A stretch of DNA of 64,000 nucleotides from Phototrophicaceae bacterium (GCA_965223965.1 CBDCXX010000002.1:56132-120131), one strand, 5' to 3'; numbered from the stretch's first letter, positions 1-63,875 are shown. Numbers and translations: made by a program. Notes: generated by a model from the letters alone, not told the origin.

Positions 1-423
1 TTGCGACATGGCGATGCGCTGGCCGTAGCCGAGCTCGAGGCCGATCGTGCCATCCGCCACGCCGAGCTGCTCACAGGCGTCATGGATGGCAGTCAGCGGA
101 TCGGGCGCGGCGTCGGCGATGCGCCAGCCACCCCAGGGGCGCACCTCTTCGATCCAGGAGGACTGGTAGGCGACGTCGACGAGACTCTCGGCGATGACGC
201 TGATGACGGGCTTGCTGTTGTCCCGGGGGACGATGATGCCCAGCGGGCGGTGTTTCGAATTCCAGCCGATGGTGCGGATGCCGGAGAAGTAGATGCCATT
301 TTCCTTGGCGGTGATGATGAGTGCGTCCATGCCATGTGCGTCCATACGTTCGCGCGCGCGTTCGACTCGGTTCAGATATTCCCCGGTCGGGAACATGGCG
401 TAGTTTGGTTCACGATGGGACAT
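1..423 (-). CDS. M24-family hydrolase (creatinase/prolidase-like), N-terminal part; 3' end runs off the window
   Basis: Absent from the ORF track because it has no stop inside the window. Hand translation of the reverse strand from ATG 423-421 (AGAGGAG about 8 nt upstream) stays open to base 1: MSHREPNYAMFPTGEYLNRVERARERMDAHGMDALIITAKENGIYFSG... This is the creatinase/prolidase N-terminal domain pattern, also seen at the N-terminus of 8487-9611. Confidence 0.6.
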   Translation of the reverse strand, partial: MSHREPNYAMFPTGEYLNRVERARERMDAHGMDALIITAKENGIYFSGIRTIGWNSKHRPLGIIVPRDNSKPVISVIAESLVDVAYQSSWIEEVRPWGGWRIADAAPDPLTAIHDACEQLGVADGTIGLELGYGQRIAMSQ

Positions 424-453
424 ACAAGATCTCCTCTTTATTGAGCGAACGAA

Positions 454-1761
454 TCAAACCGGAACGAGCTTCGGGCGGTAGCGCTGCCGGAAGCGCCAGC
501 CGGTGAGCAGTGCTCGCACGAGCATCTGCAGGAACATCGCTGACCAGACGCCTTGCAGCCCCCAACCCAGGACGCCCGTGAACAGGACGATCAGCGGCAG
601 GGAGACCAGCCAATGGCCAAAGACCGTCACCCACATCGGGTAGCGTGTATCGCCCGCGCCGCGCAGCGCGCCCGTCAACACCTGATTGATGGCCTCCAGC
701 GGCACCGCGAGCAGCACCAGGCGCAGACCGGGCAGGGCCGCCGCCCGCACCACTTCATCGGCAGAGAATAACCGGGTTACGCCTGGCCATGCAAAGAAGA
801 GCAGCGCCAGCCCGCCCATCACGAACCAGGCCTGACGCTGCAACTGAAAGGCGCTGGCGTAGATGTGCTGCGTCAGGCCGGCGCCGGTCAGCTGGCCGAT
901 CAAGGTGAGCGAGGCCAGCAAAAAACCCAGCCCCAGCATCAGGATGATGGACAGTGTGTGGGAGGTGACGGCATAGGCGGCCAGGGCGGCCACGCCGAGC
1001 TCGGTAACCAGGCGCAGCTGCAGCAAGCGGGCGCCACGAATCGCCAGTTGTTCCAGGCCGACGGGCGTGCCCAGGCGCATCAACCCTTGCATCGCGCGCC
1101 TGGAGGTCTGCCAGCCACGCCAGCGCAACGCGGCCGTGCCGCGCCAGAGCCAGAATCCCAGCAAGAGCAGACCGGCGACGCGGCTGACGAAATTGGCGAG
1201 CGCCAGGCCCATCAGGCCGGCCTCCAGCGCGAAGACCAGCAGCAGGGCCAGGACGACGTGCAAGCCGTTGGCCAGGCCCATCACGAGTAAGGGACGGCGC
1301 GCATCACCCGCGCCGCGCAGGCAGCCATTGGCGCTCAAGAGCAGGAATTGCAGTGGCAGTGCGAGCGATAACGCGCGCATATAAGGAGTGCCCAGTTGCT
1401 CGACCGAACCCGAGACACCCATCAAGGTCATAAGCAGCGGGCTGATCGCCCAGACCAACAGCATCACCGCGAAGCCGACGGCCAGGGAGAGCAGCGAGGC
1501 ACTGCGCAAGGTGAGCTCGGCGTCGGAGCGGTCGCCACGGCCGATCGCCTGGGCCACCAGGATCGAGCCACCGATCGCGGTGACCTGGAAGAGGACGGCG
1601 GTCAGCTCCACCAAACGGGCGACGACGAGCTGGGCGGCGAGCGGGTCAACGCCCAATTGACCGGCCAACACGGCATCGAAGAGGATGACGCCATAAAGCA
1701 GCGTCTGCTCCGCGGCCATCTGCAGCGCGAGCGGCAAAGTATTGCGGTGGCGTATTTTCAC
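454..1761 (-). CDS. MATE family efflux transporter
   Basis: 435-aa polytopic membrane ORF with GTG start. It has about 12 hydrophobic segments and the two-halves organisation and sequence style of MatE exporters. Confidence 0.8.
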   Translation of the reverse strand: MKIRHRNTLPLALQMAAEQTLLYGVILFDAVLAGQLGVDPLAAQLVVARLVELTAVLFQVTAIGGSILVAQAIGRGDRSDAELTLRSASLLSLAVGFAVMLLVWAISPLLMTLMGVSGSVEQLGTPYMRALSLALPLQFLLLSANGCLRGAGDARRPLLVMGLANGLHVVLALLLVFALEAGLMGLALANFVSRVAGLLLLGFWLWRGTAALRWRGWQTSRRAMQGLMRLGTPVGLEQLAIRGARLLQLRLVTELGVAALAAYAVTSHTLSIILMLGLGFLLASLTLIGQLTGAGLTQHIYASAFQLQRQAWFVMGGLALLFFAWPGVTRLFSADEVVRAAALPGLRLVLLAVPLEAINQVLTGALRGAGDTRYPMWVTVFGHWLVSLPLIVLFTGVLGWGLQGVWSAMFLQMLVRALLTGWRFRQRYRPKLVPV

Positions 1762-1788
1762 GATTCGCCGCTACGGAAGTGCGCCACA

Positions 1789-2793
1789 CTAACCAAAGTG
1801 CGGCATTACTTCGCGGGCGATCCGCTCCAGCACCTGGCAATTGCTTTCGGCATCGGCGCCGGTGAGCAGGATGCCGATCTGCCCGACGCCGCGGTCCGCG
1901 AGGCGCTCGCAGGTTTCGCGCACGCGCGCGGCGTTGCCCACAATGGTGAGCATATCGATCTCGCGCCGGGTGACAAGGGGCGCGGCGCCGGCCGGGCCGC
2001 CCGCGGCGTAGGCGCGTTTCAGGTCAACGATCGCCCCTTCTTCCATGCCAATGGCCCGCAAGAGCGAGAGGGGCGCGCCGCCGATGATATGGGCCACGCT
2101 GGGTTTGAGGCGCTCGTGGGCGGCCTCTTCGTCATCGACCACGCGGCAGGTAACCCAGCTGACGATTTCCATTTCGCTCAGGCTGCGGCCGGCGCGTGCC
2201 GCCCCGCGCTCCAACGCTGCGAAGGCGTAATCCAGCCCTTCTTTGGATACGAGCGCGCCAATCGCTGCGCCGTCGGCCAGCTCGCCAGCCGCTTCCAGCA
2301 TGCGCGCGCCGCGGGCGGCAATGTAGATCGGGATGGCCGCGCGCTCCGGTTGCCAGGAAAGCTTAAGGCCTTTGGCGGTTACGTAGCTGGATTCATGTTG
2401 CAAGGTCTCGCCCTGCAGGAGGGCGCGCACCAGGGTAACCATCTCCCGCGTGCGCGGCGCGGCGGCGTCCTGTTCGTAACCCATAGGCAGCAACAGCTCG
2501 CGCCGGTTGCCGCTGCCGATGCCCAGATTGGCGCGGCCAGCGCTGATTTCGTCCACGGTGGCGATGGCCCGCGCGACCTGGGCCGGGTGGCGCGTATAGG
2601 GGTTGGTTACCCCGATCATGAGCTGGATGTTCCCGGTCGCCTGCGCCCAGGCGGCCATAACCAGGAAGGGATCGCGGTAGAAAGTCTGGTCCGGGATCCA
2701 GGCCATCTCGTAGCCGAGGCGCTCGCCGAGTTGGACAACGCGCAGGCCTTCCGCCAGCGGTTGGGTGGGTACGAAACCGAAGCCGAAACGCAT
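1789..2793 (-). CDS. LLM-class (luciferase-like) flavin/F420-dependent oxidoreductase
   Basis: 334 aa. MRFGFGFVP start, LGYEMAWIPDQ and GRANLGIGSG are typical of luciferase-like monooxygenase family proteins. Confidence 0.75.
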   Translation of the reverse strand: MRFGFGFVPTQPLAEGLRVVQLGERLGYEMAWIPDQTFYRDPFLVMAAWAQATGNIQLMIGVTNPYTRHPAQVARAIATVDEISAGRANLGIGSGNRRELLLPMGYEQDAAAPRTREMVTLVRALLQGETLQHESSYVTAKGLKLSWQPERAAIPIYIAARGARMLEAAGELADGAAIGALVSKEGLDYAFAALERGAARAGRSLSEMEIVSWVTCRVVDDEEAAHERLKPSVAHIIGGAPLSLLRAIGMEEGAIVDLKRAYAAGGPAGAAPLVTRREIDMLTIVGNAARVRETCERLADRGVGQIGILLTGADAESNCQVLERIAREVMPHFG

Positions 2794-2826
2794 CTGATGC
2801 TCCTTTCGGGGGCAATCCGGACGGAC

Positions 2827-3957
2827 TCAGTCCGGGTGGACTTCGAAGGAATCGCTCTGGTAACGGACGACCAGGTCGGGATCCAGATCGCCACCGAGGC
2901 CGGGACCATGTGGCACGACAAGGGCGCCGTCCTCGAAGAGGATGGGCTCGGCGCTCAGATCGGCTTCGAGCAGGAATTGGCCGCCCATCTCGCAACCCCA
3001 GGTCACGTTGGGCGTCGAAGCGGCGAAATGCAGGCAGGCGCGTGAGGCGATAGCCCCTTCGAGAGCGCCGCCGACATAGCAACCGATGCCGGCCGGTTCG
3101 GCGACGATGGCCATCTTCTTGGCGTTGATGATACCACCGCCGTTGTTGATGTAGATGCTGATCAGGTCACAGGCGCGCTTCCTGGCGTGCTCAAAAACGT
3201 CGCGCGTTGAGTTGGCACCCTCGTCAGCCATGATGTAGGTGTTGGTGGCGCGGCGCACCTCGGCCATGCCGTCCAGGTCCCAGGCCTTCACCGGTTGCTC
3301 CATGAATTCCAGGCCGCTCTCGGCGAGGGAGTTAATGACGTAGATGGCCGTGTTGACATCCCAGGCCTGGTTGGCGTCGGCGCGCAGGCGGATCGCGTCA
3401 CCGGCGACGGCGCGGACGCGGCGCGTGCGCTCGATATCGTGGTCGGGGTCTTCGTGGCCGGTCTTCATCTTGAGGATGCGGATGCCACGGGAGATGGCCA
3501 TTTCAGCATCTTGTGCGGCATGTTCGTGGTCTGTGATGGGGATGGACCAACTGAGCGGAATATGGTCATGCACGATGCCGCCGAGCAGGTTGTAGACTGG
3601 CGTATTCAGGGCCTTGCCGGCGATGTCATAGAGGGCGATGTTGACAGCGCTCTTGGCGCGTGGGTTCCAGGGCAAGGCGCGCTCCATATCCAGCTGGCGC
3701 GCTTCGATCTGGCGCGGGTCCTTGCCGAAAATGACGGGCAGCAAACGCTCGCGCAGCTGGAGGGCGACGGTCGCCTGCGTCTCCCCGGCGCCGGAAAAGC
3801 CAGCCATATGTGGCGTTTCGCCCAACCCGACGATTCCCTCGTCGGTATGGAGGCGCAGGTAGACGCATTCCTGATGGCGCGTGGTGGCGAAAGACATGCG
3901 GTGCGAGCGCACGGTCGGCACTTTGGTCAGAATCACTTCGGCATTGGTGATTTTCAT
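2827..3957 (-). CDS. Enolase-superfamily enzyme (mandelate racemase/muconate lactonizing enzyme family)
   Basis: 376 aa. Carries KMK (KxK) motif and the metal-ligand contexts ADANQAW, FMEQP and IMADEG. Substrate unknown. Confidence 0.8.
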   Translation of the reverse strand: MKITNAEVILTKVPTVRSHRMSFATTRHQECVYLRLHTDEGIVGLGETPHMAGFSGAGETQATVALQLRERLLPVIFGKDPRQIEARQLDMERALPWNPRAKSAVNIALYDIAGKALNTPVYNLLGGIVHDHIPLSWSIPITDHEHAAQDAEMAISRGIRILKMKTGHEDPDHDIERTRRVRAVAGDAIRLRADANQAWDVNTAIYVINSLAESGLEFMEQPVKAWDLDGMAEVRRATNTYIMADEGANSTRDVFEHARKRACDLISIYINNGGGIINAKKMAIVAEPAGIGCYVGGALEGAIASRACLHFAASTPNVTWGCEMGGQFLLEADLSAEPILFEDGALVVPHGPGLGGDLDPDLVVRYQSDSFEVHPD

Positions 3958-3984
3958 AGCATCCTCTTTCCCGGGTATTCCGGA

Positions 3985-5181
3985 TCAGTCCAGGTGATTG
4001 AGCAGGTTACGCGCGGCCGCACCGCGTTCGCGAATGGGGTGCCCGGCCTCTTCCAGGAAAATTTCCAGCAGAGTTACCAGTGCGAGCAAGAAGGTCGGCT
4101 GGGCAGAATGTCCCAGGATGCCTACGCGCCAGACTCTGCCGCGCAAATCGCCCAGGCCGCCGCCGATATCAATGCGGTAGGGAGCCAGTAGTTGCTGGCG
4201 GATGGCGGCGGCGTCCACCCCGGCCGGCACATTGATGGCGGTTACGGTCGGCAGGCGGAACACTGGCCTGGCATGGACGGAGAGATTCAACGTCTCAAAG
4301 GCGAGGACCAGGGCATCGCGCCGATTGACCATGCGGCTCACGCGATATTCCATGCCCTGCTCGGAAATCAGCTGCAGCAACTCGGTGAGGGCGTAGAGGA
4401 TCGGTGCGGGCATGGTCTGGGCAGCACGTTCGTCTTCGCGGAAGCGGCGCAGCTGTGCCAGATCCAGGGAGGAGCTGAGGACCTGCTGTTGGCGGGCAGC
4501 GTGGACGGCGGCGGCGCGTTCGCTGAAAGTGATCAGGCCCAGGCCGGGGTAGGCGCTGATCGCTTTCTGGCTGCCGGCGACGCCGATATCGATGCCCAGC
4601 TCGTCGTGGGGCACGTCGACGGCGCTGATCGTCCAACGGGAATCGACCAGCAGCAGAGCGCCGTGCGCGTGGGCCAGCTCGCCCAGGCCGGCCAGCGCTT
4701 GCTGGACGCCGGTAGAGCCGTCGCCATGCAGGGTAGCCAGCAGGCGCGTCGGCTGTCTATCGAGGGCATCCCGCAGCGCTTCCCAGGAGACGGCTTCACC
4801 CGCCGGCGCCACGACGCGGATCACATGCGCGCCGCAGCGTTCGGCCGCCTCGGCCAGCCGCTCGCCGAAGAAGCCGCTGATGGCGACGACGGCTGTTTCG
4901 CCCGGTTGCAGCGCGTTCAGCAGGGCTGCTTCCAGGGCGGTTTCTTCGGAGCCGGGGATCAGGTAAGTATCCGCATTGTCGGTGCCCCAGATATGGCACA
5001 GCCGCGCGATGGCTTCCTCCAGCACCGCGAGGAAGCCGGGGTCGTTGGCGCCTTCCAGAACGCCAATTAATCCCTGGCGCGCGCGTGGCGAAGCGTTGCT
5101 GAGGTCCGGTCCAAGGAGGGTGCGTTCCGGCGGGTTGAGGCGTCGGTAAGGGAGGGGTGGGGGAGCGGCGTCGTCGATCAC
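3985..5181 (-). CDS. Class V aminotransferase (serine-pyruvate/alanine-glyoxylate aminotransferase-like)
   Basis: 398 aa PLP fold-type I protein with the GSQKAISA lysine motif. Its start overlaps the upstream stop (ATGA at 5178-5181). Confidence 0.8.
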   Translation of the reverse strand: MIDDAAPPPLPYRRLNPPERTLLGPDLSNASPRARQGLIGVLEGANDPGFLAVLEEAIARLCHIWGTDNADTYLIPGSEETALEAALLNALQPGETAVVAISGFFGERLAEAAERCGAHVIRVVAPAGEAVSWEALRDALDRQPTRLLATLHGDGSTGVQQALAGLGELAHAHGALLLVDSRWTISAVDVPHDELGIDIGVAGSQKAISAYPGLGLITFSERAAAVHAARQQQVLSSSLDLAQLRRFREDERAAQTMPAPILYALTELLQLISEQGMEYRVSRMVNRRDALVLAFETLNLSVHARPVFRLPTVTAINVPAGVDAAAIRQQLLAPYRIDIGGGLGDLRGRVWRVGILGHSAQPTFLLALVTLLEIFLEEAGHPIRERGAAARNLLNHLD

Positions 5182-6200
5182 TGCAGCTCGGGGATCAGGA
5201 ACTGGCCGGCTTCCATGATCTGCAAGTCATCGAGCCAGATGCTCTTGTTGCGGCAGGGGAAATCCATATGCGCTTTGGAGACGTTCTGCCCCTGGAAGAT
5301 GGCCGTATTGGCGCCGAAGGCGATCTGCATGTTGCCGTAGTAGGCTTCCTGGTCCTGCACGGCACCTTCCATCAAATAAGCGCCCATGCGGTTCCAGTCG
5401 GCGCGGTGTTCGCAACCCCAACCGATGTGGGCGATACGGTAGGCTGTCTCGTCGTTGAAGGCGGAGAACCAATCCTCCAGCAAACGTGCATCCAGGCCGC
5501 CCTCGATCTTGACGATCAGGCCATCGCGGATGGTCATCGTCACCGGCGAGGTGACGTAGCGCCCGAGGCGCAGGATCACGTCGTTGATATCGACCACCAG
5601 CGTGCCGTTGGCGCTGAACTCATCCGGGCCGACGGTGACCATGCCACTCGGCCAGTTGTCCCAGCGGCCGGGTTCATCGGCGAGGCTGTAGAGGCCCAAC
5701 ACGACGCGATCTTTGACATTGCAAGTGAGGTCCGTGCCCATGGCGGAGGTGACGCGCATCGTCTCCGCCTTGCGCAGCAGGTCGGCGCCTGCCAACGCGC
5801 GGCGGCGAATGACGGGATCGGGAGCCAGGCGCATCAGGACATCCTGCGGCTGGCCGCAACGGAGGACGCGGCCGCCATTCTCGAGCGCCGCCGCGTTGAG
5901 TAGCGAATAGGCATGGGCGACGGTGCTGACCAGGTCAATCACCATATCGGCACCTGCCCAGATGTCGGCGATGATGCCGCGGTCGTTCTCCGGCACGGTG
6001 GTCGGCACGGTGACCTGGAAGGCCTCCACGCCCAGATCGAGGGCCGCGCCGAGCGCGGCGGCCGGGTAATGCGGCGTCGTATGCGTGTCGCAATAGATGA
6101 GCAACGTCTCCCCTTCGTGCAGGTTGCAGAGCTCGAAAGTGCGCTTGAAGAGTGGAATCAACTCGGTGGATGCGCTGTAATTTAAAGGAAATTTCTTCAC
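5178..6200 (-). CDS. NicX/aminopeptidase T (M29)-like protein, paralogue 1
   Basis: Track ORF 5178-6296 trimmed to GTG 6200, which is preceded by AAAGGAGGG. Shares H(I/V)GWGC, QIAFG and H(I/M)DF motifs with 6308-7354 and 9629-10687. From memory, it resembles the family annotated as 2,5-dihydroxypyridine 5,6-dioxygenase/leucyl aminopeptidase T. Confidence 0.5.
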   Translation of the reverse strand: MKKFPLNYSASTELIPLFKRTFELCNLHEGETLLIYCDTHTTPHYPAAALGAALDLGVEAFQVTVPTTVPENDRGIIADIWAGADMVIDLVSTVAHAYSLLNAAALENGGRVLRCGQPQDVLMRLAPDPVIRRRALAGADLLRKAETMRVTSAMGTDLTCNVKDRVVLGLYSLADEPGRWDNWPSGMVTVGPDEFSANGTLVVDINDVILRLGRYVTSPVTMTIRDGLIVKIEGGLDARLLEDWFSAFNDETAYRIAHIGWGCEHRADWNRMGAYLMEGAVQDQEAYYGNMQIAFGANTAIFQGQNVSKAHMDFPCRNKSIWLDDLQIMEAGQFLIPELQ

Positions 6201-34676: not shown

Positions 34677-35136
34677 CTAGAGGTTCTCTCCAAGCGCCAC
34701 AGAATTTCCCCATTCCGCTACATCGGAAGGGTCCAGCCGAGTAATCCCCGGCAGTCTGTCGAAGTCAGTATCCGCGGATATAATGCAGTTCTGCCCCCAA
34801 TCGCTGCATTACTGCTGCATGCACGAGGTCTCGTGTGCTGACGTGAGGGTGATGGTCTGCCAGGCGCACCGCGAGAAGTATGTCCTCCTCGTAGATGGGT
34901 TCGATGCGGTCATGCATGACCTCTGCGAAGGAGCGAACCACATGCCTGCCAAGCTCCCATCGCCTTGAAGTAAGGTAGTGATGCACAAGTTCCTGTAGAA
35001 CTTCGACATTAGTCACGAACGCGAACGGCGACTCGGCGACAATTGTCAGAACACGAGCGCAGGGTTCTTTGTAGAGATGTTCTCTGCCGGAGGCGTAGAT
35101 GGGAATGTTAGTATCAATGAATACCGCCGGGCTCAT
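34677..35136 (-). pseudogene. vapC: VapC-type PIN toxin, interrupted by a +1 frameshift in a G5 run
   Basis: ATG 35136 (MSPAVFIDTNIPIY...). The frame stops at 34765 after ...MQRLGAELHYIRGY. The next frame reads QNCIISADTDFDRLPGITRLDP..., the conserved VapC C-terminus, down to TAG 34679-34677. The shift is at C5/G5 34794-34798. Confidence 0.7.
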
Positions 35137-35195
35137 GTGCCTTCTCCAACTCACGCGAGAGCGTGGCAGCATCTGGAAGATGTTCTACATTCAGA

Positions 35196-35363
35196 TTAGA
35201 CCAATCTTTCGACGGCTTCCATACGACGCCTACGCATGACATCTTCATAGGCGTCATCTATCAATCGGCGCACTACCTCGGAGATTGGCATACCCCGCTC
35301 TGCGACAAGTTCTTCTAGCCGTCGCCTCCGCTCAGCATCAAGTCGTACATCCAGTCTAGGCAT
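35196..35363 (-). CDS. Ribbon-helix-helix (CopG-like) antitoxin, VapB
   Basis: 55 aa, below the track cutoff, hand-translated: MPRLDVRLDAERRRRLEELVAERGMPISEVVRRLIDDAYEDVMRRRRMEAVERLV. A second frame continues LNVEHLPDAATLSRELEKAHEPGGIH to 35114, overlapping the vapC start, so this gene may also carry a frameshift. Confidence 0.55.
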   Translation of the reverse strand: MPRLDVRLDAERRRRLEELVAERGMPISEVVRRLIDDAYEDVMRRRRMEAVERLV

Positions 35364-40030: not shown

Positions 40031-40067
40031 ATTCGCAAAAGAAATAGCCCCCGATAGTCGGGGGCTA
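40031..40067 (-). terminator. Rho-independent-type terminator for the minus-strand TA operon
   Basis: On the minus strand, UAGCCCCC/GACUAUC/GGGGGCUA (40067-40045) is followed by UUUCUUUUG. Confidence 0.5.
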
Positions 40068-40070
40068 TGA

Positions 40071-40225
40071 TTAGGTTCTGTTGACATTTCTGATTTCCAG
40101 CCCGTCATTCCCGCGCAGGCGGGAATCCAGAGAGCTTGGGCCGTGCAGGTGTCGCTGGACGCACCGATTTTCAGTGCTAACCTTCGGCAAACCGCTTCGA
40201 AATTCAGAATGTCCACACACCCTAG
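40071..40225. mobile_element. MITE-like element (about 155 nt) with imperfect terminal inverted repeats and an internal REP hairpin
   Basis: Left end ttaggttctgttgacattt; right end gaatgtccacacaccctag, whose reverse complement is ctagggtgtgtggacattc. Internal attcccgc-gcag-gcgggaat hairpin at 40107-40126. Related ends occur at 61815, 62232 and in the 115-nt tandem array. Confidence 0.6.
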
Positions 40226-40226
40226 T

Positions 40227-40523
40227 TTACGGTTGATAGAGATTTGACTTGAGATATAAGCGGGATACGGATATGACTTGATCATTTTCGATCATGTATG
40301 CCATGCGCCAATATCGATTGTTGGTGAGTATGACTCCCGACCTATTAGGGAAATAATCTGCGCGAAATTTAGTTTGCTCATCTGGTTCAGGGTTGCGCAG
40401 TATTTCAGCAAATAAGTCTATGGCGGCTTCTAATTCATATCTGTTCGCTTTTTCAAGTTCCGTCAGTGCCGATTCTGATAGACGGAGTCTATTCGATGGT
40501 TCGGAACGTCTTGGTATTCTCAT
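40227..40523 (-). CDS. RelE/ParE-superfamily-like toxin (pair 1)
   Basis: 98 aa. C-terminal ...YWRMAYMIENDQVISVSRLYL fits the RelE/ParE last-strands pattern. Paralogous to 43222-43512. Overlaps its upstream partner. Confidence 0.5.
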   Translation of the reverse strand: MRIPRRSEPSNRLRLSESALTELEKANRYELEAAIDLFAEILRNPEPDEQTKFRADYFPNRSGVILTNNRYWRMAYMIENDQVISVSRLYLKSNLYQP

Positions 40524-40710
40524 CTATCTCTATTGTTCGATACTCTCCTCGCTCAATCTCCCTGAAGCCCTCCTCAATGTCCGCAGTGAACCAATCGGAG
40601 CGAAGTTTGGCAAGTTCATCTCTTGTTTGCTCCAGTGATTGCTCTTCCCTCTCTTTAGTGGCCAATTCCCGCCTCCCATGGTGGCTTTGGGTTACCCTGA
40701 ACCACGACAT
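40489..40710 (-). CDS. Putative antitoxin (pair 1)
   Basis: 73 aa. LAKLRSDWFTADIEEGFREIERGEYRTIEID is paralogous to LDQLRPEWLAEDVAEGLKEIERDEVVEIEID of 43059-43235. Overlaps the toxin by 35 nt. Confidence 0.5.
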   Translation of the reverse strand: MSWFRVTQSHHGRRELATKEREEQSLEQTRDELAKLRSDWFTADIEEGFREIERGEYRTIEIDENTKTFRTIE

Positions 40711-40794
40711 CAGATGTTGAATTACTGATGTTGGAACATCGTAGGAAAGTTCTTGCGAATTGTCAATTTTGTAATGGGTCTCTTACTGTTACTG

Positions 40795-41249
40795 TGGTAT
40801 TCTCAACATGCGTTGGTGTTCATACTCGTCATTCCCGCGCAGGCGGGAATCCACGCGGTCGCTGACTATGCTGGTTTCCAATGCCAACACGCATTGAGAT
40901 TACCGCCTACTAGGTTCTGTTGACATTTCTGATTCCCAGCCCGTCATTCCCGCGCAGGCGGGAATCCACGCGGTCGCTGGCTATGCTGGTTTCCAATGCC
41001 AACACACATTGAGATTACCGCCTACTAGGTTCTGTTGACATTTCTGATTCCCAGCCCGTCATTCCCGCGCAGGCGGGAATCCACGCGGTCGCTGACTATG
41101 CTGGTTTCCAATGCCAACACACATTGAGAATACCGCCTACTAGGTTCTGTTGACATTTCTGATTCCCAGCCCGTCATTCCCGCGCAGGCGGGAATCCACG
41201 CGGTCGCTGGCTATGCTGGTTTCCAATGCCAACACACATTGAGAATACC
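40795..41249. repeat. Tandem array of a 115-nt unit (about 3.7 copies) upstream of rtcB
   Basis: Unit starts (taggttctgttgacattt) at 40911, 41026 and 41141. Each unit holds the MITE left end, the REP hairpin gtcattcccgcgcaggcgggaatcca and ...ggtttccaatgccaacacacattgaga(a/t)taccgcct. The array is bounded by inverted copies of ccaacacacattgagaatacc. Confidence 0.9.
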
Positions 41250-41378
41250 ATTACTGTTCTTGTATTGCCTTGGTCGATTAGGCGTGCCCGAAATTTATGC
41301 TACGATGAAGTATTGCTATCGCGAATACGAAGCGCGAATACGAGAACTGTAAGAACTGGAATTGGGAGAGGACGCGCT

Positions 41379-42560
41379 ATGCCACCACATTCACTAAGCC
41401 CCAATGCGCTTTCCTGGGTGCCACAGGAGCAGATCGAGGAAGCGGCGCTGCAACAGATACACAACCTGTCCGAGATGCCGTTCATCTTCAAGCATGTGGC
41501 TGTGATGCCCGATTGCCACTTTGGGTTGGGCGCGACGGTGGGTTCGTGCATCCCCACGCTGAGAGCGATCATCCCGGCTGCTGTGGGCGTGGACATAGGC
41601 TGCGGCATGATTGCAGTGAAGACGAGCATGAGCCGATCCGACCTGCCAGATGACCTATCCGACATTCGCAAGGCGATCGAGAGCCAGATACCGCTCAGCG
41701 CCGGGCGCTACAATGCCAGCGTCAAGAAGACCGCAAAGCCGCGCATCAAGCAGCTGGAAGGCAGAGCGGAAGAACTGGGGCGGCTGGATTTCTACGACAA
41801 GACGGGCCGCAACTGGCGCAAGCAGCTTGGCTCGCTCGGCTCGGGCAACCACTTCATCGAGATTGTGCTCGACGAAGAGGATGGCGTCTGGGCGTTCCTG
41901 CACTCCGGCTCGCGCGGCGTCGGCAACCGCCTGGCAACGCATCACATCAGGGTAGCGAAGGGGCTTATGGAGCGCGATGGCGTCGAGCTGCCGGATGCCG
42001 ACCTCGCCTACCTGCAGGAAGGCGCGCCTGAATTCGACGCCTACATCACAGATCTGGAGTGGGCGCAGGAGTTCGCGCTGCTGAACCGTGAGGAGATGAT
42101 GGAGCGCGTCATCAGGCTGCTGCAGTATCGCTGCGGCGACTTCGAGGTTGTCGAGCGTATCCAGTGCCACCACAACTTCACGCAGCGCGAGAATCACTTC
42201 GGCGAGGACATACTGGTGTCGCGCAAGGGCGCGATCGAGGCGCGCGAGGGGCAGCTCGGGCTGATACCGGGTTCGATGGGCACGCGCAGCTACGTGGTGC
42301 GCGGGAAGGGCAACGCGCAGGCGTTCAACACCGCGCCGCATGGAGCGGGTCGCCGCATGAGCCGCCGCAAGGCGCGCGACTCGTTCACCATGGACGACTT
42401 CGACCGACTGATGACGGGCATCGAGGTCAACCGCTCCGAAGCGTTCCTCGACGAACTGCCGGGCGCGTACAAGGACATCGACCTCGTGATGGAGCAGTCT
42501 AAGGACCTCGTCGAAGTCATCCACGCCTTCCGCCAGATAGTCAATGTGAAGGGCGCGTAG
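41379..42560 (+). CDS. rtcB: RNA 3'-phosphate ligase RtcB
   Basis: ATG 41379 (GGGAGAGG upstream) within track ORF 41226-42560; 393 aa. Motifs PDCHFGLGATVG, GSGNHFIE, HSGSRGVGN, CHHNF, GSMG and APHGAGR. Confidence 0.9.
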   Translation: MPPHSLSPNALSWVPQEQIEEAALQQIHNLSEMPFIFKHVAVMPDCHFGLGATVGSCIPTLRAIIPAAVGVDIGCGMIAVKTSMSRSDLPDDLSDIRKAIESQIPLSAGRYNASVKKTAKPRIKQLEGRAEELGRLDFYDKTGRNWRKQLGSLGSGNHFIEIVLDEEDGVWAFLHSGSRGVGNRLATHHIRVAKGLMERDGVELPDADLAYLQEGAPEFDAYITDLEWAQEFALLNREEMMERVIRLLQYRCGDFEVVERIQCHHNFTQRENHFGEDILVSRKGAIEAREGQLGLIPGSMGTRSYVVRGKGNAQAFNTAPHGAGRRMSRRKARDSFTMDDFDRLMTGIEVNRSEAFLDELPGAYKDIDLVMEQSKDLVEVIHAFRQIVNVKGA

Positions 42561-43058
42561 GCTGCGCAAGTGAGGGTTCAACCGCATAACGGAAGCAGAA
42601 CGTGAGTCAGAGCGACGGGGTTACGTCGCAGAGACCGGAGTCAGCCCCGAGATACCGTGCAAGCCCTTGAAACTACCAGTTTCGAGTGTACTCCCCCGCT
42701 TTGACCCTAGCGGAGGCGATTGGTAAGATGTTGCCAAAGACTTAGTTCTTCGCTTAGTATGTGTAACCGGAGCGAGACAACACACATAACAGATGGCGCG
42801 AACACACAGCAGCGCAAGGAGGTGAAGGATGGCAATTTCAGCAACTAGGTGTAGCAAGAGACCCAGGCTAGGCGCACGACGTTGCGTCTAGCTGGATTCA
42901 TTTGCAAGGGGATGCGGTGAACGGTGCGCGCGAGGCCCAGACCTCGAAAATGAACACACCTCTTGCGTTTCTCAAGTTACCCACCCTGTTTGGAGTAAGC
43001 GGAGGAGCGGACGACAGTACAGACCGCTACGGCCCGTTCATAAAAGCAGGGAGAAGAC

Positions 43059-43235
43059 ATGACAACTAAGGCAAGGAGAAAGCCGAGATTCAAGACGAAG
43101 GAAGAATTAGACCAGTTACGACCCGAATGGCTGGCTGAGGATGTTGCGGAGGGTCTGAAGGAGATCGAGCGAGACGAGGTGGTGGAAATCGAAATCGACG
43201 CGGAACGCGGAGAGTATCGATTTGTTCAGGGTTAG
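43059..43235 (+). CDS. Putative antitoxin (pair 2)
   Basis: 58 aa, below the track cutoff, hand-translated: MTTKARRKPRFKTKEELDQLRPEWLAEDVAEGLKEIERDEVVEIEIDAERGEYRFVQG. Overlaps the toxin start by 14 nt. Paralogue of 40489-40710. Confidence 0.5.
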   Translation: MTTKARRKPRFKTKEELDQLRPEWLAEDVAEGLKEIERDEVVEIEIDAERGEYRFVQG

Positions 43236-43512
43236 TCTGGGAATTAACGCTCGAAGGGCATTAGACAGTGCGACCGAGTCAGAGGTGGAGTCCGCAGTAG
43301 AATTATTTGCTGCTTTGCTAGATGACCCTTTCCCAGACGAAGTTACCAAGTTTTCGGTCAATTATTTTCCGAATCAATCGGGAGTAGTGGAAGTAGGTAA
43401 CGACGTTTGGTATGCGGGTTATGTTGTAGAGGGTCAGGATATACTGATTGCAAGGCTCTACTTATGGTCTAAATTGACGGATGACCCTATGCAGTACGGG
43501 GTTGAATTGTAA
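43222..43512 (+). CDS. RelE/ParE-superfamily-like toxin (pair 2)
   Basis: 96 aa with TTG start. FSVNYFPNQSGVVEVGNDVWYAGYVVEGQDILIARLYL is colinear with FRADYFPNRSGVILTNNRYWRMAYMIENDQVISVSRLYL of 40227-40523. Confidence 0.5.
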   Translation: MFRVSLGINARRALDSATESEVESAVELFAALLDDPFPDEVTKFSVNYFPNQSGVVEVGNDVWYAGYVVEGQDILIARLYLWSKLTDDPMQYGVEL

Positions 43513-43724
43513 GATAAAATAGATGAGGGTGGGTACACCTGCGAGGGATGGGTTGTTAAACCCATCCCTCCTTTATATGTCTTATCATATCGTGTTCAGA
43601 TTTGGAGATCTGGAAGAAAGGGAGCTACTACTTTAATTCAACCCTCGTAATATTTTCTGGTGCATGGCTCTCGTCAGAAAAAGGACAGGAAACTATTGTA
43701 TTGCCTTGCACTCGTACCTTTCCC

Positions 43725-43753
43725 TTGACATAGACGAACATACAATCTATATT
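43725..43753 (+). promoter_or_regulatory. Near-consensus sigma70-type promoter
   Basis: TTGACA (43725-43730), a 17-nt spacer, then TATATT (43748-43753). Confidence 0.55.
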
Positions 43754-43764
43754 GGATCCAGCAA

Positions 43765-43801
43765 GGGACAGACCCGATTGATTTGGGTCTGTCCCTTTTT
43801 T
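43765..43801 (+). terminator. Intrinsic terminator immediately downstream of the promoter
   Basis: gggacagaccc (43765-43775) pairs with gggtctgtccc (43785-43795), followed by T6 (43796-43801). Confidence 0.65.
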
Positions 43802-43844
43802 GTTGGCGATTGTTGAGTCGTATCGGATGCGTGGGAGGTTTGGG

Positions 43845-44273
43845 ATGGCGTTCACGGATGGGCAGAGGTCGCGCTTTCGCATTGCGGACACGGATGGCGT
43901 GATGCGCGACCTGTCGGCGTACATCACGGAAGTGAGCGGGCTGCCGGGCGGGCGAACACTGAACGAAGTAACGGCTCTTGGCAACTTGGGAGCGCGCTTC
44001 AAGCCGGGCGCGGAGGCGGTGCAGTTCACGCTGCGTGGACTGTTCGACGACACGCCGGACGCGGGCGCGGATGCGGTGTTGGGAGCGCTGCGATGCCACG
44101 CCGCTGCTACTGCCTTCGAGTATGCGCCGGCAGGTTTGGCAGGCGACAGCGTGCGTTACACGGGCGATTGCTGGGTGAGGTCCTACGAACTGCTCAGTCG
44201 CAGTGGGGAGATCGTGTCCTGGCGGGCGACGCTGCAAGTTGAGGGTGTTGCCAACAGGACGGACGGGGTGTAG
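43845..44273 (+). CDS. Phage major tail (tube)-like protein
   Basis: ATG 43845 (GGGAGG 6 nt upstream) in track ORF 43800-44273; 142 aa. MAFTDGQRSRFRIADTDGVMRDLSAYITEVSGLPGGRTLNEVTALG... has the style of siphophage/GTA-type tail tube proteins, recognised from memory. Confidence 0.45.
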   Translation: MAFTDGQRSRFRIADTDGVMRDLSAYITEVSGLPGGRTLNEVTALGNLGARFKPGAEAVQFTLRGLFDDTPDAGADAVLGALRCHAAATAFEYAPAGLAGDSVRYTGDCWVRSYELLSRSGEIVSWRATLQVEGVANRTDGV

Positions 44274-44295
44274 AGGATACAAGGGGATGTGAATT

Positions 44296-46269
44296 ATGAC
44301 CGATGCGAAGTGGAAGCTAATGGTGGACTGGCAGGGCGATGGAGAGTTCGCGGGCGCTGACGACGATATTGCGCCCGCAGCGCTAGGTCTGTCGCTGCGG
44401 CACATGCGAGATCTGAGAAGCGAGTATATTGATCCGGCGCGGCTGCACATTCGGCTGGCGAACTTCGACCACAAGTACAGTCCGCCCAACACGGCATCGC
44501 CTCTGTTCGGCGCGCTCAAGCCGGGACGCAAGGTGTGGCTGCGCGCCGCGTTCCCGTGCGATGAGTTCGGCGATATGGCGGGCGCAAGACTCGCTGACCA
44601 CGCGCCCGAATGCGGCGCGGCGTATCGCTGGACTGATGCCAACCATGACTTTCGCATTGCTGCCGGCGGCGCACAGATTAACGGCGCGCAGACGGATGGC
44701 GCTCGCTCCGGACGACGCATCGCAACGATGAACTTCGGCCTTGCGGATGTGTCGTTCGGCTGCGATTTCACGCGCGGAAGCAATGCGACGCGGCATGGCG
44801 GGCTCACCCTGCGATATGCGGACGCCGACAACTTTCTGTATGTGCGTGCTATGCCCAACGCGGTGCAGGTTCGCAGAGTAGAGCAAGGAAGCGATGCACT
44901 GGTGGCTGAGTCGGCTCTGCAATGGAACGCGGGAGACAAGAAGTTCATTCAGGCGGAGTTGCACGGCGACTCTATTCGAGTGTTTGTTGATGAGAAGCAA
45001 GTGATAGCGGCGCGCTCAGGGTTCAACCGCAACGCAACGCGGCACGGCTTGCACTGCGATGGCGCAGCCGATCACCTGTGGCAGCAGTTCGGAGGCTGGG
45101 TATCGCTCTTCTACGGCGATGTCGAGAGCATCGACCCGCAGCCCGGATCGGGTCCCGGATCGGGGCAATGTCGCATACGCGCTTACGACGAAATGCGTCG
45201 CCTCGAGAGCGTAACGCTGTACATGTACGCAACATCCTCATTTCCTCAAACATCCGATGAAATCCTCAGAGACATACTGGACTATGCGAGCGTTGACGCA
45301 AGCATTCGCAGGCTGGATGCGGGCACAGAACTTGTGCCGCAGTTATGGAGTCCGCCGCTCTGGGGAGTGCAGGCTGCGGATGAGATTCGGCGCCTGCAGG
45401 ATGAAGAGGACGGCTTCATCTATGTGGACGGGCATGGCTTCTGGCGCATGGAGAGTCGCGGTCACCGTGAAGCGGCGCCGCACTCGGCGGCAAGAGCGAC
45501 GCTGAGGGCGCGCAATGACGGCGCAGATGCCTACTTCTCCGCCCTGGAGTGGAGCGACGGTGTGGGCAACATCGAAAACAAGGTCTTCATGCGAGTCCGC
45601 GACGCCGCGAACCACGGACATCGCACGGCCTGGACGCTTGGCGAGACGCCGCGCTTCGACGTGGGCGAGACGCGCGAGTTCCTCGCCGAAAGCAAGGACT
45701 TCGATGTCGTTGGTGGACAGCTCAGTCCGCAGGCGAGCACCGACTATGCGGCAAACACGCAACCCGACGGCACGGGCGCTGACATCACAGCGCAGCTCAC
45801 CGTTACATATTCCGCGACGAGGCTATTCAACGGCAAGGGCGCCCTGATACGCGTGCGCTTCGGCGCAACGGCAGGCTACCTGACACGGCTGGGGATGCGC
45901 ACCGTTAACGCTTTGACCTTCAATGCGCCGGTGCTGGTGACCGCAGAGGACACGAACAGCCAGAACACTTATGGGCAGCGCATTCGCAGCATAGACGCTC
46001 GCTGGACGCGCGAGGCGCAGTCGGCGCAGGCAACAATCGCGCGGCGATTGGCTCGCAAGTCTTCGCCCCGCACCGCGCTCAGTGTGACTCTGCCCAACGG
46101 CTCGGATGCCAATCTGCTTCTGATGCTGCAAACGAAGTTGTCAGATCGGCTCGCCGTGCATTACGAGGACATGGGCGTGGACGGCGACTTCTTCGTGGAA
46201 GGCTACACGCTCGAAGTGGGGCAATCGGGAAAACATCTGGAGCGGACGCTGCTATTGCAGCAGGCATGA
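44296..46269 (+). CDS. Phage distal-tail (Dit)-like protein with an inserted lectin/LamG-like module
   Basis: 657 aa. N-terminus (WKLMVDWQGDGEF...RLHIRLANFDHKYSPPNTASPLFGALKPGRKVWL) resembles phage tail family proteins. The middle segment (GGLTLRYADADNFLYVRA...IQAELHGDSIRVFVDEKQV) looks like a concanavalin/LamG-type jelly roll. Confidence 0.45.
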   Translation: MTDAKWKLMVDWQGDGEFAGADDDIAPAALGLSLRHMRDLRSEYIDPARLHIRLANFDHKYSPPNTASPLFGALKPGRKVWLRAAFPCDEFGDMAGARLADHAPECGAAYRWTDANHDFRIAAGGAQINGAQTDGARSGRRIATMNFGLADVSFGCDFTRGSNATRHGGLTLRYADADNFLYVRAMPNAVQVRRVEQGSDALVAESALQWNAGDKKFIQAELHGDSIRVFVDEKQVIAARSGFNRNATRHGLHCDGAADHLWQQFGGWVSLFYGDVESIDPQPGSGPGSGQCRIRAYDEMRRLESVTLYMYATSSFPQTSDEILRDILDYASVDASIRRLDAGTELVPQLWSPPLWGVQAADEIRRLQDEEDGFIYVDGHGFWRMESRGHREAAPHSAARATLRARNDGADAYFSALEWSDGVGNIENKVFMRVRDAANHGHRTAWTLGETPRFDVGETREFLAESKDFDVVGGQLSPQASTDYAANTQPDGTGADITAQLTVTYSATRLFNGKGALIRVRFGATAGYLTRLGMRTVNALTFNAPVLVTAEDTNSQNTYGQRIRSIDARWTREAQSAQATIARRLARKSSPRTALSVTLPNGSDANLLLMLQTKLSDRLAVHYEDMGVDGDFFVEGYTLEVGQSGKHLERTLLLQQA

Positions 46270-46346
46270 TTTGCGTTCTCAATCAGACTTAGGAACCCCT
46301 ACCCTCTCTGAGGGGAAGGGAAGGTTAGGGGAAAGGAGACTGAAAG

Positions 46347-46559
46347 TTGGTTAGCGACTTGATTCAGTTCATCAACATAGGATTGGCGGGCGTGCTGCTT
46401 ATGTGGTTCATGTTCCGGCTGGAGCGCATGCTCGTGCGCCTCGACAAGACCCTGCAGCTAATGGCGCGCGCCACGCTGAGGATGCTCGACCGCCGCGACC
46501 CCAAGACGGCAACAGACCTCAGCAAGGAGCTGTATCGTATGAGCGGGGATGAGGATTAG
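46347..46559 (+). CDS. Small membrane protein (N-terminal TM, C-terminal helical tail), holin-like size
   Basis: 70 aa with TTG start and AAGGAG 8 nt upstream. INIGLAGVLLMWFMF TM segment. Confidence 0.4.
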   Translation: MVSDLIQFINIGLAGVLLMWFMFRLERMLVRLDKTLQLMARATLRMLDRRDPKTATDLSKELYRMSGDED

Positions 46560-47290
46560 GATTGCCGACCGCGCAATTCGGCTTCCAACTCACGGATGTG
46601 CGCCTGGGCTGCGGCAAGGTCGTCTTGGGCTGCAGCAAGGCTGCGGACATAATTGCCTATTTCGGGATCGTAGAATAGCAGCCTGTCCATGCGAACACTG
46701 TCGGCGATCGGATGCATGCCTTCTTGCGCGCACAGACTCAGTCCCAATAGCGCGCTGTAACCGCTCACCAAACCGTCGGAGTTGACTTCCAGCTCAATTG
46801 GCTCGTATGCGCCGCCAACCAGTATGTCGCCTGCAAGCGACGCGTCGTAGTAATTGCCGCCGCTCGGATCGAAACGCCAATATTCCTTGACGCCGATGCG
46901 TTCGTACAGGTCTCGCTTGTCTGTGAGGTCCCGCCGCGCCGTTGACGGAGAGGCTATCTCCAGTGCGAAGTCCGGCGCTTTGCCCACTTGCCATATCAGA
47001 TAGCCGTTCTGCGCGAATATGGCTCCGGCGTCCACACCGAAGGCGACATAGCAGTCTGGGAAAACCCTGTCGTTAAGGTTGTCGGGATTGTAGCAGACTA
47101 CGGTGTTTCCGTCGACGAACACGGTCGGATCGTCTTTATAATAGTTTTCCAAGATAGTCAAAGCGTCAGTGAAGTTCGGTCTCTGGAACATAGCATCCGG
47201 CATCTGATTGAGTTCACCGGGCAAGTCGCGCGGGTCTATAATGGGAAGGGCGTTCGTCATAGCATGCAACGGTATGGACTTTGTAGTCAT
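46556..47290 (-). CDS. Uma2 family (DUF820) endonuclease
   Basis: ATG 47290 (GGAGGCGAGGTGAT upstream). PDFALEIASPSTARRDLTDKRDLYERIGVKEYWRFDP is the Uma2 PD-(D/E)xK core. Confidence 0.8.
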   Translation of the reverse strand: MTTKSIPLHAMTNALPIIDPRDLPGELNQMPDAMFQRPNFTDALTILENYYKDDPTVFVDGNTVVCYNPDNLNDRVFPDCYVAFGVDAGAIFAQNGYLIWQVGKAPDFALEIASPSTARRDLTDKRDLYERIGVKEYWRFDPSGGNYYDASLAGDILVGGAYEPIELEVNSDGLVSGYSALLGLSLCAQEGMHPIADSVRMDRLLFYDPEIGNYVRSLAAAQDDLAAAQAHIRELEAELRGRQS

Positions 47291-47330
47291 ATCACCTCGC
47301 CTCCGTCTCATTCGTCCATGTCAATGCCCG

Positions 47331-62793: not shown

Positions 62794-63744
62794 ATGGTCA
62801 CTCAACTGCACCAGGCTACACCAGAGCAAGACGCCCACCAGAGGCTGCGGGAGTCCGTACAGCGCATCGTCCTTGAGGAAACTCAGGGCGGCAGGCGCAT
62901 CGTCCGCAGCGTCGTCTCCATCATGGAGGGCGACGCGCCCGGCAGCTCCCCTTGGCACCAGCTCGAAGCCGCTAAGCTCCTGCTGAAGCTCGGCTTCGAG
63001 GACGCCCGCGCCACGCTCGGCAGCATCCACAAGCAGAGCAGAAAAACTCCTCCCGCTTCTCAGTCCGTCATTCCCGCGCAGGCGGGAATCCAGGGGTGGA
63101 GTGGTGCGCCAGGTGAGAGTGACTCACAGCAATCCCACATCAACCCCGAGCAGCTAAAACTCAACAAGAAGCTCGTCCGCCAGATCCGCGTGGACACCGG
63201 CGACGGCGCTTCTATGGTCAAGTTCCTCATAGATGTCGTAGAAGGCAACGAGCCTGACGCAAAGGTCAAGGACAGGATAGGAGCTGCCAAGGTATTGCTG
63301 CATCTCTGCTTCGACAACCCCGCCCAGCCCGACCCTGAGTTCATGATGCACTACGCGCCCTGCCACCCCGACTGCCTCTGCGTCTGCAAGGACCTCCCCG
63401 AAGACCACCCGGAGGTAGTCAAGGCGCACACCCCTCCCACCGACGAGCAGCGCGAGCAGTGGGCAAGGGAGGCGGAGATGACCGAGCGCGCAGCGGAATC
63501 GGCGGAGCTCAAAGCAGCACAGAAAGCCAGGGCAGACAAGGACTGGAAGCTCCAGCAGTACCACTCCCCCGACACTGTAGTCGAGAGGCGTCTCGAAAGA
63601 GAAGAACTCCGCACAAAGCGCGAACACAAGCGAGAACTTGAACAGGAGCGCGAACGAGAGCGCAAGAGAGAAATAGACCGCGAGAACAGGCAAGACCTGC
63701 AACAACAGCGCATCCGAGAACCGGAGCGCATCCGCAGCCCATAG
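62794..63744 (+). CDS. Hypothetical protein with an internal duplication, an in-frame REP insertion and a highly charged C-terminal tail
   Basis: ATG 62794 in track ORF 62773-63744. Two homologous modules (...VVSIMEGDAP...LEAAKLLLKLGFED / ...LIDVVEGNEP...IGAAKVLLHLCFDN) are separated by QSVIPAQAGIQGW, which is encoded by the REP hairpin. The tail is E/R/K-rich. Confidence 0.55.
   Translation: MVTQLHQATPEQDAHQRLRESVQRIVLEETQGGRRIVRSVVSIMEGDAPGSSPWHQLEAAKLLLKLGFEDARATLGSIHKQSRKTPPASQSVIPAQAGIQGWSGAPGESDSQQSHINPEQLKLNKKLVRQIRVDTGDGASMVKFLIDVVEGNEPDAKVKDRIGAAKVLLHLCFDNPAQPDPEFMMHYAPCHPDCLCVCKDLPEDHPEVVKAHTPPTDEQREQWAREAEMTERAAESAELKAAQKARADKDWKLQQYHSPDTVVERRLEREELRTKREHKRELEQERERERKREIDRENRQDLQQQRIREPERIRSP
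63066..63092. repeat. REP-type palindrome inside a CDS
   Basis: gtcattcccgc-gcag-gcgggaatcca is identical to the copies at 40103-40129 and in each 115-nt tandem unit. Confidence 0.85.
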
Positions 63745-63762
63745 CCACTACCTTAACTCGTC

Positions 63763-63782
63763 ATTCCTGCGAAGGCAGGAAT
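63763..63782. repeat. REP-type palindrome, variant with a compensatory base-pair change
   Basis: attcctgc-gaag-gcaggaat versus the canonical attcccgc-gcag-gcgggaat. The C-G pair is replaced by T-A on both arms. Confidence 0.8.
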
Positions 63783-63875
63783 CCAGAGGGGAAGGGTTGG
63801 GCGCATCTGTCCATCCATGTCGGTTAAGACCCCTTTCGTGGCAAGCCTGTCGAACCACACTCTTTCCCGAGTTTG

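Follow-up and report, generated by a model that had tools for sequence, protein, structure and literature searches.

Small toxin-antitoxin (TA) modules of the RelBE and ParDE kinds, together with the RNA ligase RtcB, are the closest described counterparts of the locus reported here. Repair of toxin-cleaved RNA by RtcB has precedent (PMC5416887, PMC9223846, PMC7790460), and a role in mending tRNAs that host RNases have cleaved has been proposed for phage RtcB (PMC7824862). We analysed a stretch of 64,000 nucleotides (nt) from a Phototrophicaceae bacterium (GCA_965223965.1, CBDCXX010000002.1:56132-120131), called the window below and used for all coordinates, in which an rtcB gene is bracketed by two small-gene pairs at 40,227-43,512. 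An earlier description made from the DNA alone (the sequence-only reading) had proposed that these genes form a self-contained RNA damage-and-repair unit. The explanation we favour, with moderate confidence, is that two independent TA modules of a rare RelE/ParE-like subfamily lie at an insertion hot spot beside a phage-type rtcB. The locus is probably not a purpose-built RNA damage-and-repair cassette, because related genomes show separate arrival of the pairs in that hot spot.

The pairs share with the RelBE systems (E. coli RelBE, M. tuberculosis RelBE1 and RelBE2, and the RelE proteins of T. thermophilus and P. horikoshii) a toxin of about 95 amino acids (aa) with a predicted β-α-α-β-β-β-β fold, preceded by a small, overlapping antitoxin gene, and structures from these systems (2khe, 9g12, 3g5o and 1wmi) are the best Foldseek matches. 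They differ in falling below curated hidden Markov model (HMM) thresholds, in not conserving K52, K54 and R61 of E. coli RelE, and in having an antitoxin of just 58 aa without a predicted ribbon-helix-helix or other DNA-binding domain. With ParDE and PaaA2-ParE2 they share the superfamily fold (8c24, 7r5a, 6xrw and 5cw7 are among the Foldseek matches) and a weak Pfam signal, which is to ParE_toxin; the Foldseek E-values are poorer than for RelE-type structures, however, and no PaaR2-like regulator gene lies nearby. The window RtcB carries a full active site, as do the enzymes of E. coli RtcR-RtcBA and RtcB2-PrfH, but no RtcA, RtcR, PrfH, archease or Rsr gene is adjacent to it. It resembles phage RtcB in having relatives of 50-60% identity in at least 269 IMG/VR viral contigs and a downstream gene similar to a phage major tail protein, whereas it is itself chromosomal, beside core pst/phoU genes, and the viral loci have no tail-like genes next to RtcB.

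The two pairs are found on opposite strands, both facing outwards from a core composed of a 115-nt repeat array, rtcB and a 498-nt spacer. The open reading frame (ORF) calls and the segments derived from them are as follows.

40227-40523, minus strand: toxin 1, ORF of 98 aa, predicted RelE/ParE fold, rare unnamed family
40489-40665, minus strand: antitoxin 1, probable gene of 58 aa from the TTG at 40665, within an ORF at 40489-40710 whose longer frame has its ATG at 40710
41379-42560, plus strand: rtcB, 393 aa, intact RNA 3'-phosphate/5'-OH ligase
42561-43058: non-coding spacer, 498 nt
42563-43716, plus strand: pair-2 block, a 1.15-kb indel comprising the spacer, both pair-2 genes and some 200 nt beyond them on the 3' side
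43059-43235, plus strand: antitoxin 2, ORF of 58 aa
43222-43512, plus strand: toxin 2, ORF of 96 aa, TTG start

The sequence-only reading had described two paralogous, outward-facing pairs around the array, rtcB and a non-coding stretch of about 500 nt, and this layout was confirmed. Toxins 1 and 2 are 45% identical over 84 aa (E 9e-25, BLASTP local alignment), antitoxins 1 and 2 are 41% identical over 46 aa (E 7e-12), and the genes overlap by 35 nt in pair 1 and by 14 nt in pair 2. The start of antitoxin 1 is placed at the TTG at 40665 because its orthologues all begin at the equivalent TTG behind a GGGAGG ribosome-binding site, while the frame upstream of this codon is disrupted by indels in the orthologues. 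The long rtcB ORF opens at a first ATG at 41226, inside the repeat array; the Pfam match begins only at residue 77 and all orthologues start MPPHSLSPN, which places the start at 41379 instead. The spacer is assigned as non-coding because 1-nt indels interrupt its small ORFs in the copy of a related genome (L003), which is 98% identical. Rfam searches at gathering and permissive thresholds and a tRNA scan gave no genuine match anywhere, the spacer included, and the predicted folding of the spacer is ordinary (z = -1.5).

The history of the two pairs was compared across 18 related loci including the window, all with RtcB at least 84% identical; besides the window they comprise three Dehalococcoidia metagenome-assembled genomes (L002-L004), together with L012 and L172-L184, with several metagenome contigs among the latter. 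In the chromosomal setting of the window (context A), the genes run in the order pstB, phoU, nucleoside hydrolase, the pair of toxin 1 and antitoxin 1 where present, rtcB, a tail-like ORF and a 657-aa ORF. The pair-2 block is found in only three of the 18 loci (the window, L003 and L178), where it is 97.5-97.8% identical, and is missing from the other 15 (L002, L004, L012, L172-L177 and L179-L184). Its flanks are just 90-93% identical, and synonymous divergence (dS) is 0.03 for pair 2 as against 0.22 for rtcB in the same genome pair, so that the block is far younger than the DNA around it. Pair 2 is therefore a recent, sporadic, horizontally exchanged 1.15-kb cassette insertion. Neither pair is present in L012 (RtcB 90% identical), where the nucleoside hydrolase gene and rtcB stand back to back about 150 nt apart, followed by the tail-like gene. 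A self-contained unit bracketed by two TA pairs is thus not what the relatives show, since pair 2 is usually missing and rtcB occupies the same site with no pair at all.

The toxins themselves point the same way. Over a full-length family alignment they are 42% identical to each other, and neither is the other's closest relative: toxin 1 reaches 47% with P0004, while toxin 2 is at much the same distance from toxin 1 as from other lineages of the family (44% with P0007, 42% with P0004). The pairs are separate acquisitions and do not stem from a local inverted duplication. Apparent frameshifts among the relatives (toxin 1 in L004 and L178, and at its C-terminus in L003; rtcB in L176 and L178; the tail-like gene in L178) were not scored as pseudogenes, as they may be assembly errors at low coverage, and in L179-L184 the toxin had been missed by the gene caller although its frame is intact, with a start two codons downstream.

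Several observations on pair 1 weigh against the explanation by independent modules. Pair 1 adjoins rtcB in 17 of the 18 related loci, in two unrelated chromosomal contexts, and its dS follows that of rtcB (0.21 and 0.56 for toxin 1, against 0.18 and 0.73 for rtcB, in the same genome pairs); the matching dS values and the two contexts together indicate that the pair-1 genes and rtcB have stayed together through at least one relocation. It is also somewhat surprising that both neighbours of rtcB come from the same very rare family, and RelE-type cleavage leaves ends that RtcB can seal. In the second setting (context B), pair 1 and rtcB occur in six strain-variant contigs from one sample (L172-L177), none of which has the tail-like gene. 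The toxin side is conserved there (HAD hydrolase, MBL-fold hydrolase and CoA-transferase), and the far side of rtcB (locus coordinates about 1-3600) is hypervariable, carrying type I restriction-modification (RM) genes, a type ISP RM gene with a PIN protein, Uma2, a HicB-like gene or a 1102-aa ORF. In this context rtcB seems to be the conserved anchor of a variable defence island. The rtcB gene of L176 is a mosaic, its product being 85% identical to the window protein in the N-terminal part and 93-95% identical in the C-terminal part.

On this evidence pair 1 and rtcB could be read as a functional three-gene damage-and-repair module, in which a RelE-like toxin would leave 2',3'-cyclic-phosphate/5'-OH ends and the divergently transcribed RtcB would reseal structured targets (tRNA, rRNA) during recovery, or limit self-damage, pair 2 being an unrelated later addition. 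We regard this reading as unlikely. Beyond the adjacency in 17 of 18 loci and the agreement in dS, it gains from the back-to-back promoters of pair 1 and rtcB, which lie within about 200 nt of each other, from the first rank of RelE-type RNases in the Foldseek search, and from the known ability of RtcB to reverse MazF cleavage of 16S rRNA (PMC5416887) and colicin E3 damage (PMC9223846). It is opposed by L012, where pair 1 is missing but rtcB stands intact at this position, by the restriction of the association to one narrow clade and by the lack of conservation of the RelE catalytic residues. The known substrate of RelE, moreover, is mRNA in the ribosomal A site, the fragments of which are not known to be held together for religation. 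A real functional link between pair 1 and rtcB is unlikely, and we think it quite improbable that the two form a selected unit for reversible RNA damage (arrest, then resealing) made up of a divergent RelE-like RNase, a minimal antitoxin and a phage-type RtcB, and kept through a chromosomal relocation at the edge of a variable defence island. Simple co-inheritance fits the position of pair 1 beside rtcB, although the persistence of this adjacency in two contexts is the single feature that still deserves attention. Pair 1 has been under purifying yet relaxed selection, with ratios of nonsynonymous to synonymous divergence (dN/dS) of 0.2-0.5 for the pair and 0.25-0.49 for toxin 1 against its orthologues; the ratio for rtcB is about 0.1.

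The wider survey also weighs against coupling. The sequence-only reading had proposed a survey for co-localisation of the TA family with rtcB in other genomes, and outside the one clade none was found. No rtcB lies near the toxin family at the seven more distant family loci (L005-L011), and the TA family is absent both from all 79 metagenomic loci surveyed with RtcB relatives of 53-62% identity (the range into which 79 of the 80 metagenomic loci with RtcB relatives fall) and from 80 viral loci with RtcB relatives of 50-60% identity, fetched from the at least 269 IMG/VR contigs; this makes 0 of 159 loci with RtcB relatives, of which 80 or more are viral contigs. Among small ORFs within 1.5 kb of the metagenomic rtcB relatives, only three of 144 match any toxin family (PIN_2, PemK and Gp49, one each). 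Co-localisation thus appears confined to one narrow Dehalococcoidia clade, with no recurrence in independent lineages, and the association of pair 1 with rtcB is best described as a single lineage or evolutionary event plus one relocation. If the coupling were true, nature would here have combined a toxin with the very enzyme able to reverse its effects, which would bear on how cells leave dormancy induced by toxins. What the evidence indicates is ordinary genome dynamics, in which TA cassettes accumulate at a recombination hot spot beside a conserved gene, and the locus is a clean example of why adjacency in a single genome needs checking in relatives before function is read into it.

An AlphaFold2 model of the toxin, built on 16 family members, reached pLDDT 88.4 and pTM 0.76 and is composed of a strand (residues 12-15), two helices (17-24 and 28-43) and four further strands (52-54, 64-68, 72-78 and 83-91). 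Foldseek comparison with the PDB gave a probability of 1.00 to many RelE, YafQ, YoeB and ParE structures, with TM-scores of 0.65-0.81, and the model therefore places the toxin in the RelE/ParE superfamily. The assignment made by the sequence-only reading, RelE/ParE-like toxins, stands as far as this predicted fold is concerned; it is not borne out by curated family models or by the catalytic residues of E. coli RelE. Toxin 1 scores 14.8 bits against PF05016 ParE_toxin (cut-off 23) and 13.3 bits against TIGR02385 RelE_StbE (cut-off 27.9, E 0.089), toxin 2 has no curated family-model match, and NCBIfam scans over all toxin-family members do not separate RelE from ParE. The toxin alignment profile finds only chance-level matches among PDB sequences, and PADLOC matched neither pair nor RtcB. 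The E. coli RelE residues K52, K54, R61, R81 and Y87, tested as a set, are not conserved in the family: the hhalign alignment to E. coli RelE, whose sequence was confirmed from 4v7k, is weak (E 0.056) and places K52 at V64, K54 at L66 and R61 at R73, and across the family the K52, K54 and R61 positions are hydrophobic, mostly Glu and mostly Tyr, respectively. The toxins may still be RNases, because the RelE alignment is weak and other RelE-like RNases use different residues.

The same data bear on whether the toxins are instead ParE-like, poisoning gyrase or acting on another non-RNA target, in which case the chemistry of RtcB would be unrelated. We consider this possible, though doubtful. The sole sequence-family signal in Pfam is to ParE_toxin, matched at E < 1 by five of 16 toxin-family members (best E 0.003), and TM-scores to ParE structures are as high as those to RelE (8c24_B, TMq 0.70). 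The conserved positions of the family (L23, L42, P45, D48, P59, W72 and Y76) include no invariant polar set on the sheet, the positions aligned with RelE K52, K54 and R61 are of the kinds just described, and the antitoxin is short with no predicted DNA-binding domain, in which it resembles PaaA2 of PaaA2-ParE2. The Foldseek E-values favour the other side: RelE structures rank on top (2khe at 1.6e-5, then 9g12, 3g5o and 1wmi, the RelE range being 1.6e-5 to 1e-4), followed by YafQ and YoeB (1.6e-5 to 1e-3 for RelE, YafQ and YoeB together), whereas ParE structures come in at about 1e-2. A PHROG family annotated as 'RelE-like toxin' is matched at E 0.0012, which together with the sub-threshold TIGR02385 match counts against a ParE assignment, and the model has a RelE-like look in its first helix, which is short at 8 residues, and in its N-terminal strand.

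The toxin family is very rare, with 18 clusters at E <= 0.001 among 1.84 billion representatives (HMMER), some of them long repetitive proteins. A tblastn search of plasmids with toxin 2 returned nothing, a search of viral contigs did not find the family, and neither toxin nor antitoxin has a name in Pfam, NCBIfam or PADLOC. The toxins thus appear to constitute a rare, unannotated branch of the RelE/ParE superfamily, which is newly defined here together with its 58-aa antitoxin, predicted to have no DNA-binding domain.

The antitoxin family conserves the motif LxxLRS..ADxxEGFxEIxRGE. It has no Pfam match, its profile matches PDB sequences at chance level only, and the 68 clusters that the profile recovers from 5.8 billion sequences include none that is named or has a Pfam domain. 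An AlphaFold2 model of antitoxin 2, of moderate confidence (pLDDT 69), consists of a disordered basic N-terminus, two helices and a β-hairpin, and no DNA-binding fold is predicted in it. Every family member examined (L001-L011) has a small gene upstream of the toxin gene and overlapping it, and the two partners are co-detected by profile search, which supports the view that the small genes behave as type II TA pairs. In the distant family member L006, an orphan antitoxin-like ORF (5379-5579; profile E 2.5e-10) lies about 250 nt upstream of a complete pair.

The preferred explanation, two independent modules at a hot spot, would work as follows. Two TA modules would have landed at different times on either side of a stand-alone rtcB in a Dehalococcoidia chromosome, pair 1 being an old resident inherited with rtcB and pair 2 a recent insertion of the 1.15-kb cassette. 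Each antitoxin is predicted to wrap its own toxin through its C-terminal helix and β-hairpin and so to neutralise it; upon loss of the labile antitoxin, the toxin would arrest growth. RelE-like cleavage of mRNA on the ribosome is slightly favoured as the toxic activity, with ParE-like gyrase poisoning as the alternative. RtcB would act independently, as a general sealer of 2',3'-cyclic-phosphate/5'-OH RNA breaks.

The rtcB gene is an intact, stand-alone ligase gene, as the sequence-only reading had held. Its product scores 387.6 bits against Pfam RtcB PF01139 (cut-off 27), and equivalents of the P. horikoshii metal-binding and nucleophile residues are all present: D95 and C98 in the motif GVDIGCG, H203 in GSGNHF, H234 in HSGSRG, H329 in CHHNF and H404 in PHGAGR. 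With 155 bits it misses the cut-off of the E. coli RtcB equivalog (407) by a wide margin, and it does not reach that of TIGR03073 release_rtcB (128.6 against 271.8); its best NCBIfam match is a model for intein-containing RtcB relatives, and it has no intein of its own. Its clade is common in viral contigs, and the gene is of phage type. No rtcA, rtcR or prfH gene stands beside it, its neighbours being the nucleoside hydrolase gene, the TA pairs, the tail-like gene and the 657-aa ORF, and RtcA, RtcR and archease genes are absent within about 5 kb of the locus, the part of the window scanned for them. Genes within that distance are pstA/pstB, phoU, the nucleoside hydrolase gene, the phage-tail-like gene, the 657-aa ORF, Uma2 and a gene for an NHL-repeat protein.

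The remaining mapped features are repeats and putative transcription signals.

40044-40068, minus strand: terminator-like hairpin 3' of toxin 1, 11-bp stem with 7 G-C pairs and a T-rich tail
40072-40129, plus strand: partial copy of the 115-nt element, 58 nt, 98% identical, just downstream of toxin 1
40738-40766, minus strand: promoter-like site of pair 1, TTGACA-17-TACGAT, 10 of 12 consensus matches
40796-41249, plus strand: REP/MITE-like tandem array of the 115-nt element, 3.7 copies from 40827 plus a diverged leading copy
43543-43570, plus strand: terminator-like hairpin 3' of toxin 2, 12-bp stem with 7 G-C pairs

The array at 40827-41249 was scored by Tandem Repeats Finder at 811, with 98% matches over its 3.7 copies of 115 nt, and the array belongs to the repeat families D1/D2 and the inverted repeats I1/I2, the partial copy to family D2. 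The segment that holds the array (40770-41292) and a second segment (40085-40224) are both missing from all relatives, and indels separate close relatives at both repeat features, at pair 2 and at Uma2. The site is an indel hot spot in a TA-rich genome.

The inverted pairs had also been proposed to let the locus behave as a composite mobile unit, that is, to be the ends of an element that carries rtcB. The inversion of paralogous pairs around rtcB and the occurrence of the pair 1-rtcB block in two chromosomal contexts would suit such an element. The DNA shared by the two pairs is negligible, however (at best 51 nt at 75% identity, with a best inverted match of 18 nt), no transposase or recombinase gene is present at the unit, the relocated block consists of pair 1 and rtcB only and never includes pair 2, and pair 2 is gained and lost on its own. 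A composite element is thus effectively refuted by the comparison of loci, and we give it hardly any weight.

Other copies of the repeat were observed in the window and in other loci, and a mobile element in a relative. The 115-nt element, dispersed and REP/MITE-like, has the core palindrome GTCATTCCCGCGCAGGCGGGAATC and terminal inverted segments, and the element or its core palindrome recurs in the window at about 62535, at 63067-63090 and at 63760-63783. The window copies flank pair 1 in direct orientation; those copies are missing in the relatives. Single copies are found in L008 and L172, the latter just 3' of rtcB (3606-4814) and before restriction-modification genes. In L178, an insertion sequence (IS) element (3500-4137; DDE_Tnp_1 and DUF4096 ORFs) lies between antitoxin 1 and rtcB, at the same intergenic site as the window array.

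Pairs 1 and 2 each have their own promoter-like site and terminator-like hairpin. The -35 hexamer of pair 1 and its position are kept in L002, L003, L004, L174, L179 and L184, in which the -10 hexamer is TACACT. On the other strand, at a distance of about 60-100 nt from the pair 1 promoter-like site, a conserved segment precedes rtcB; L012 has this segment too, despite lacking pair 1. The array of the window has been inserted between the segment and the promoter-like site.

Two further genes of possible defence or TA character lie outside the locus. A Uma2-family endonuclease gene (46556-47311, minus strand) matches the PADLOC candidate PDC-S03 (E 3e-12); it is an indel, since L004 has it, L002 and L012 lack it, and L003 carries different DNA in its place. 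About 5-6 kb from pair 1, a VapC-like PIN-domain ORF (34765-35172, minus strand; Pfam PIN, E 1e-10) and the small ORF immediately before it (35196-35363, minus strand) probably form a third TA module.

Beyond the pair-2 block, a near-consensus sigma-70 promoter at 43725-43797 (TTGACA-17-TATATT, 11 of 12 matches) is directly followed by a 15-bp GC-rich hairpin and a T-run, just upstream of the tail-like gene. The hexamers and the stem are kept in L002, L003, L004 and L012, while spacer and loop vary, and the layout recalls a lambdoid late promoter with a terminator awaiting antitermination; in relatives without pair 2 the hairpin could be the terminator of rtcB. The region that follows, 43800-46559, has a phage-derived look: a 157-aa ORF (probable ATG at 43845) matches phrog_10528 major tail protein (E 2e-23) and is followed by the 657-aa ORF, which has no family match, and by a 70-aa hydrophobic ORF. 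Every context-A relative has the 157-aa and 657-aa ORFs (68-91% identity), and this conservation suggests either the remnant of a prophage that has been retained or a cluster of tail-like genes that has been domesticated.

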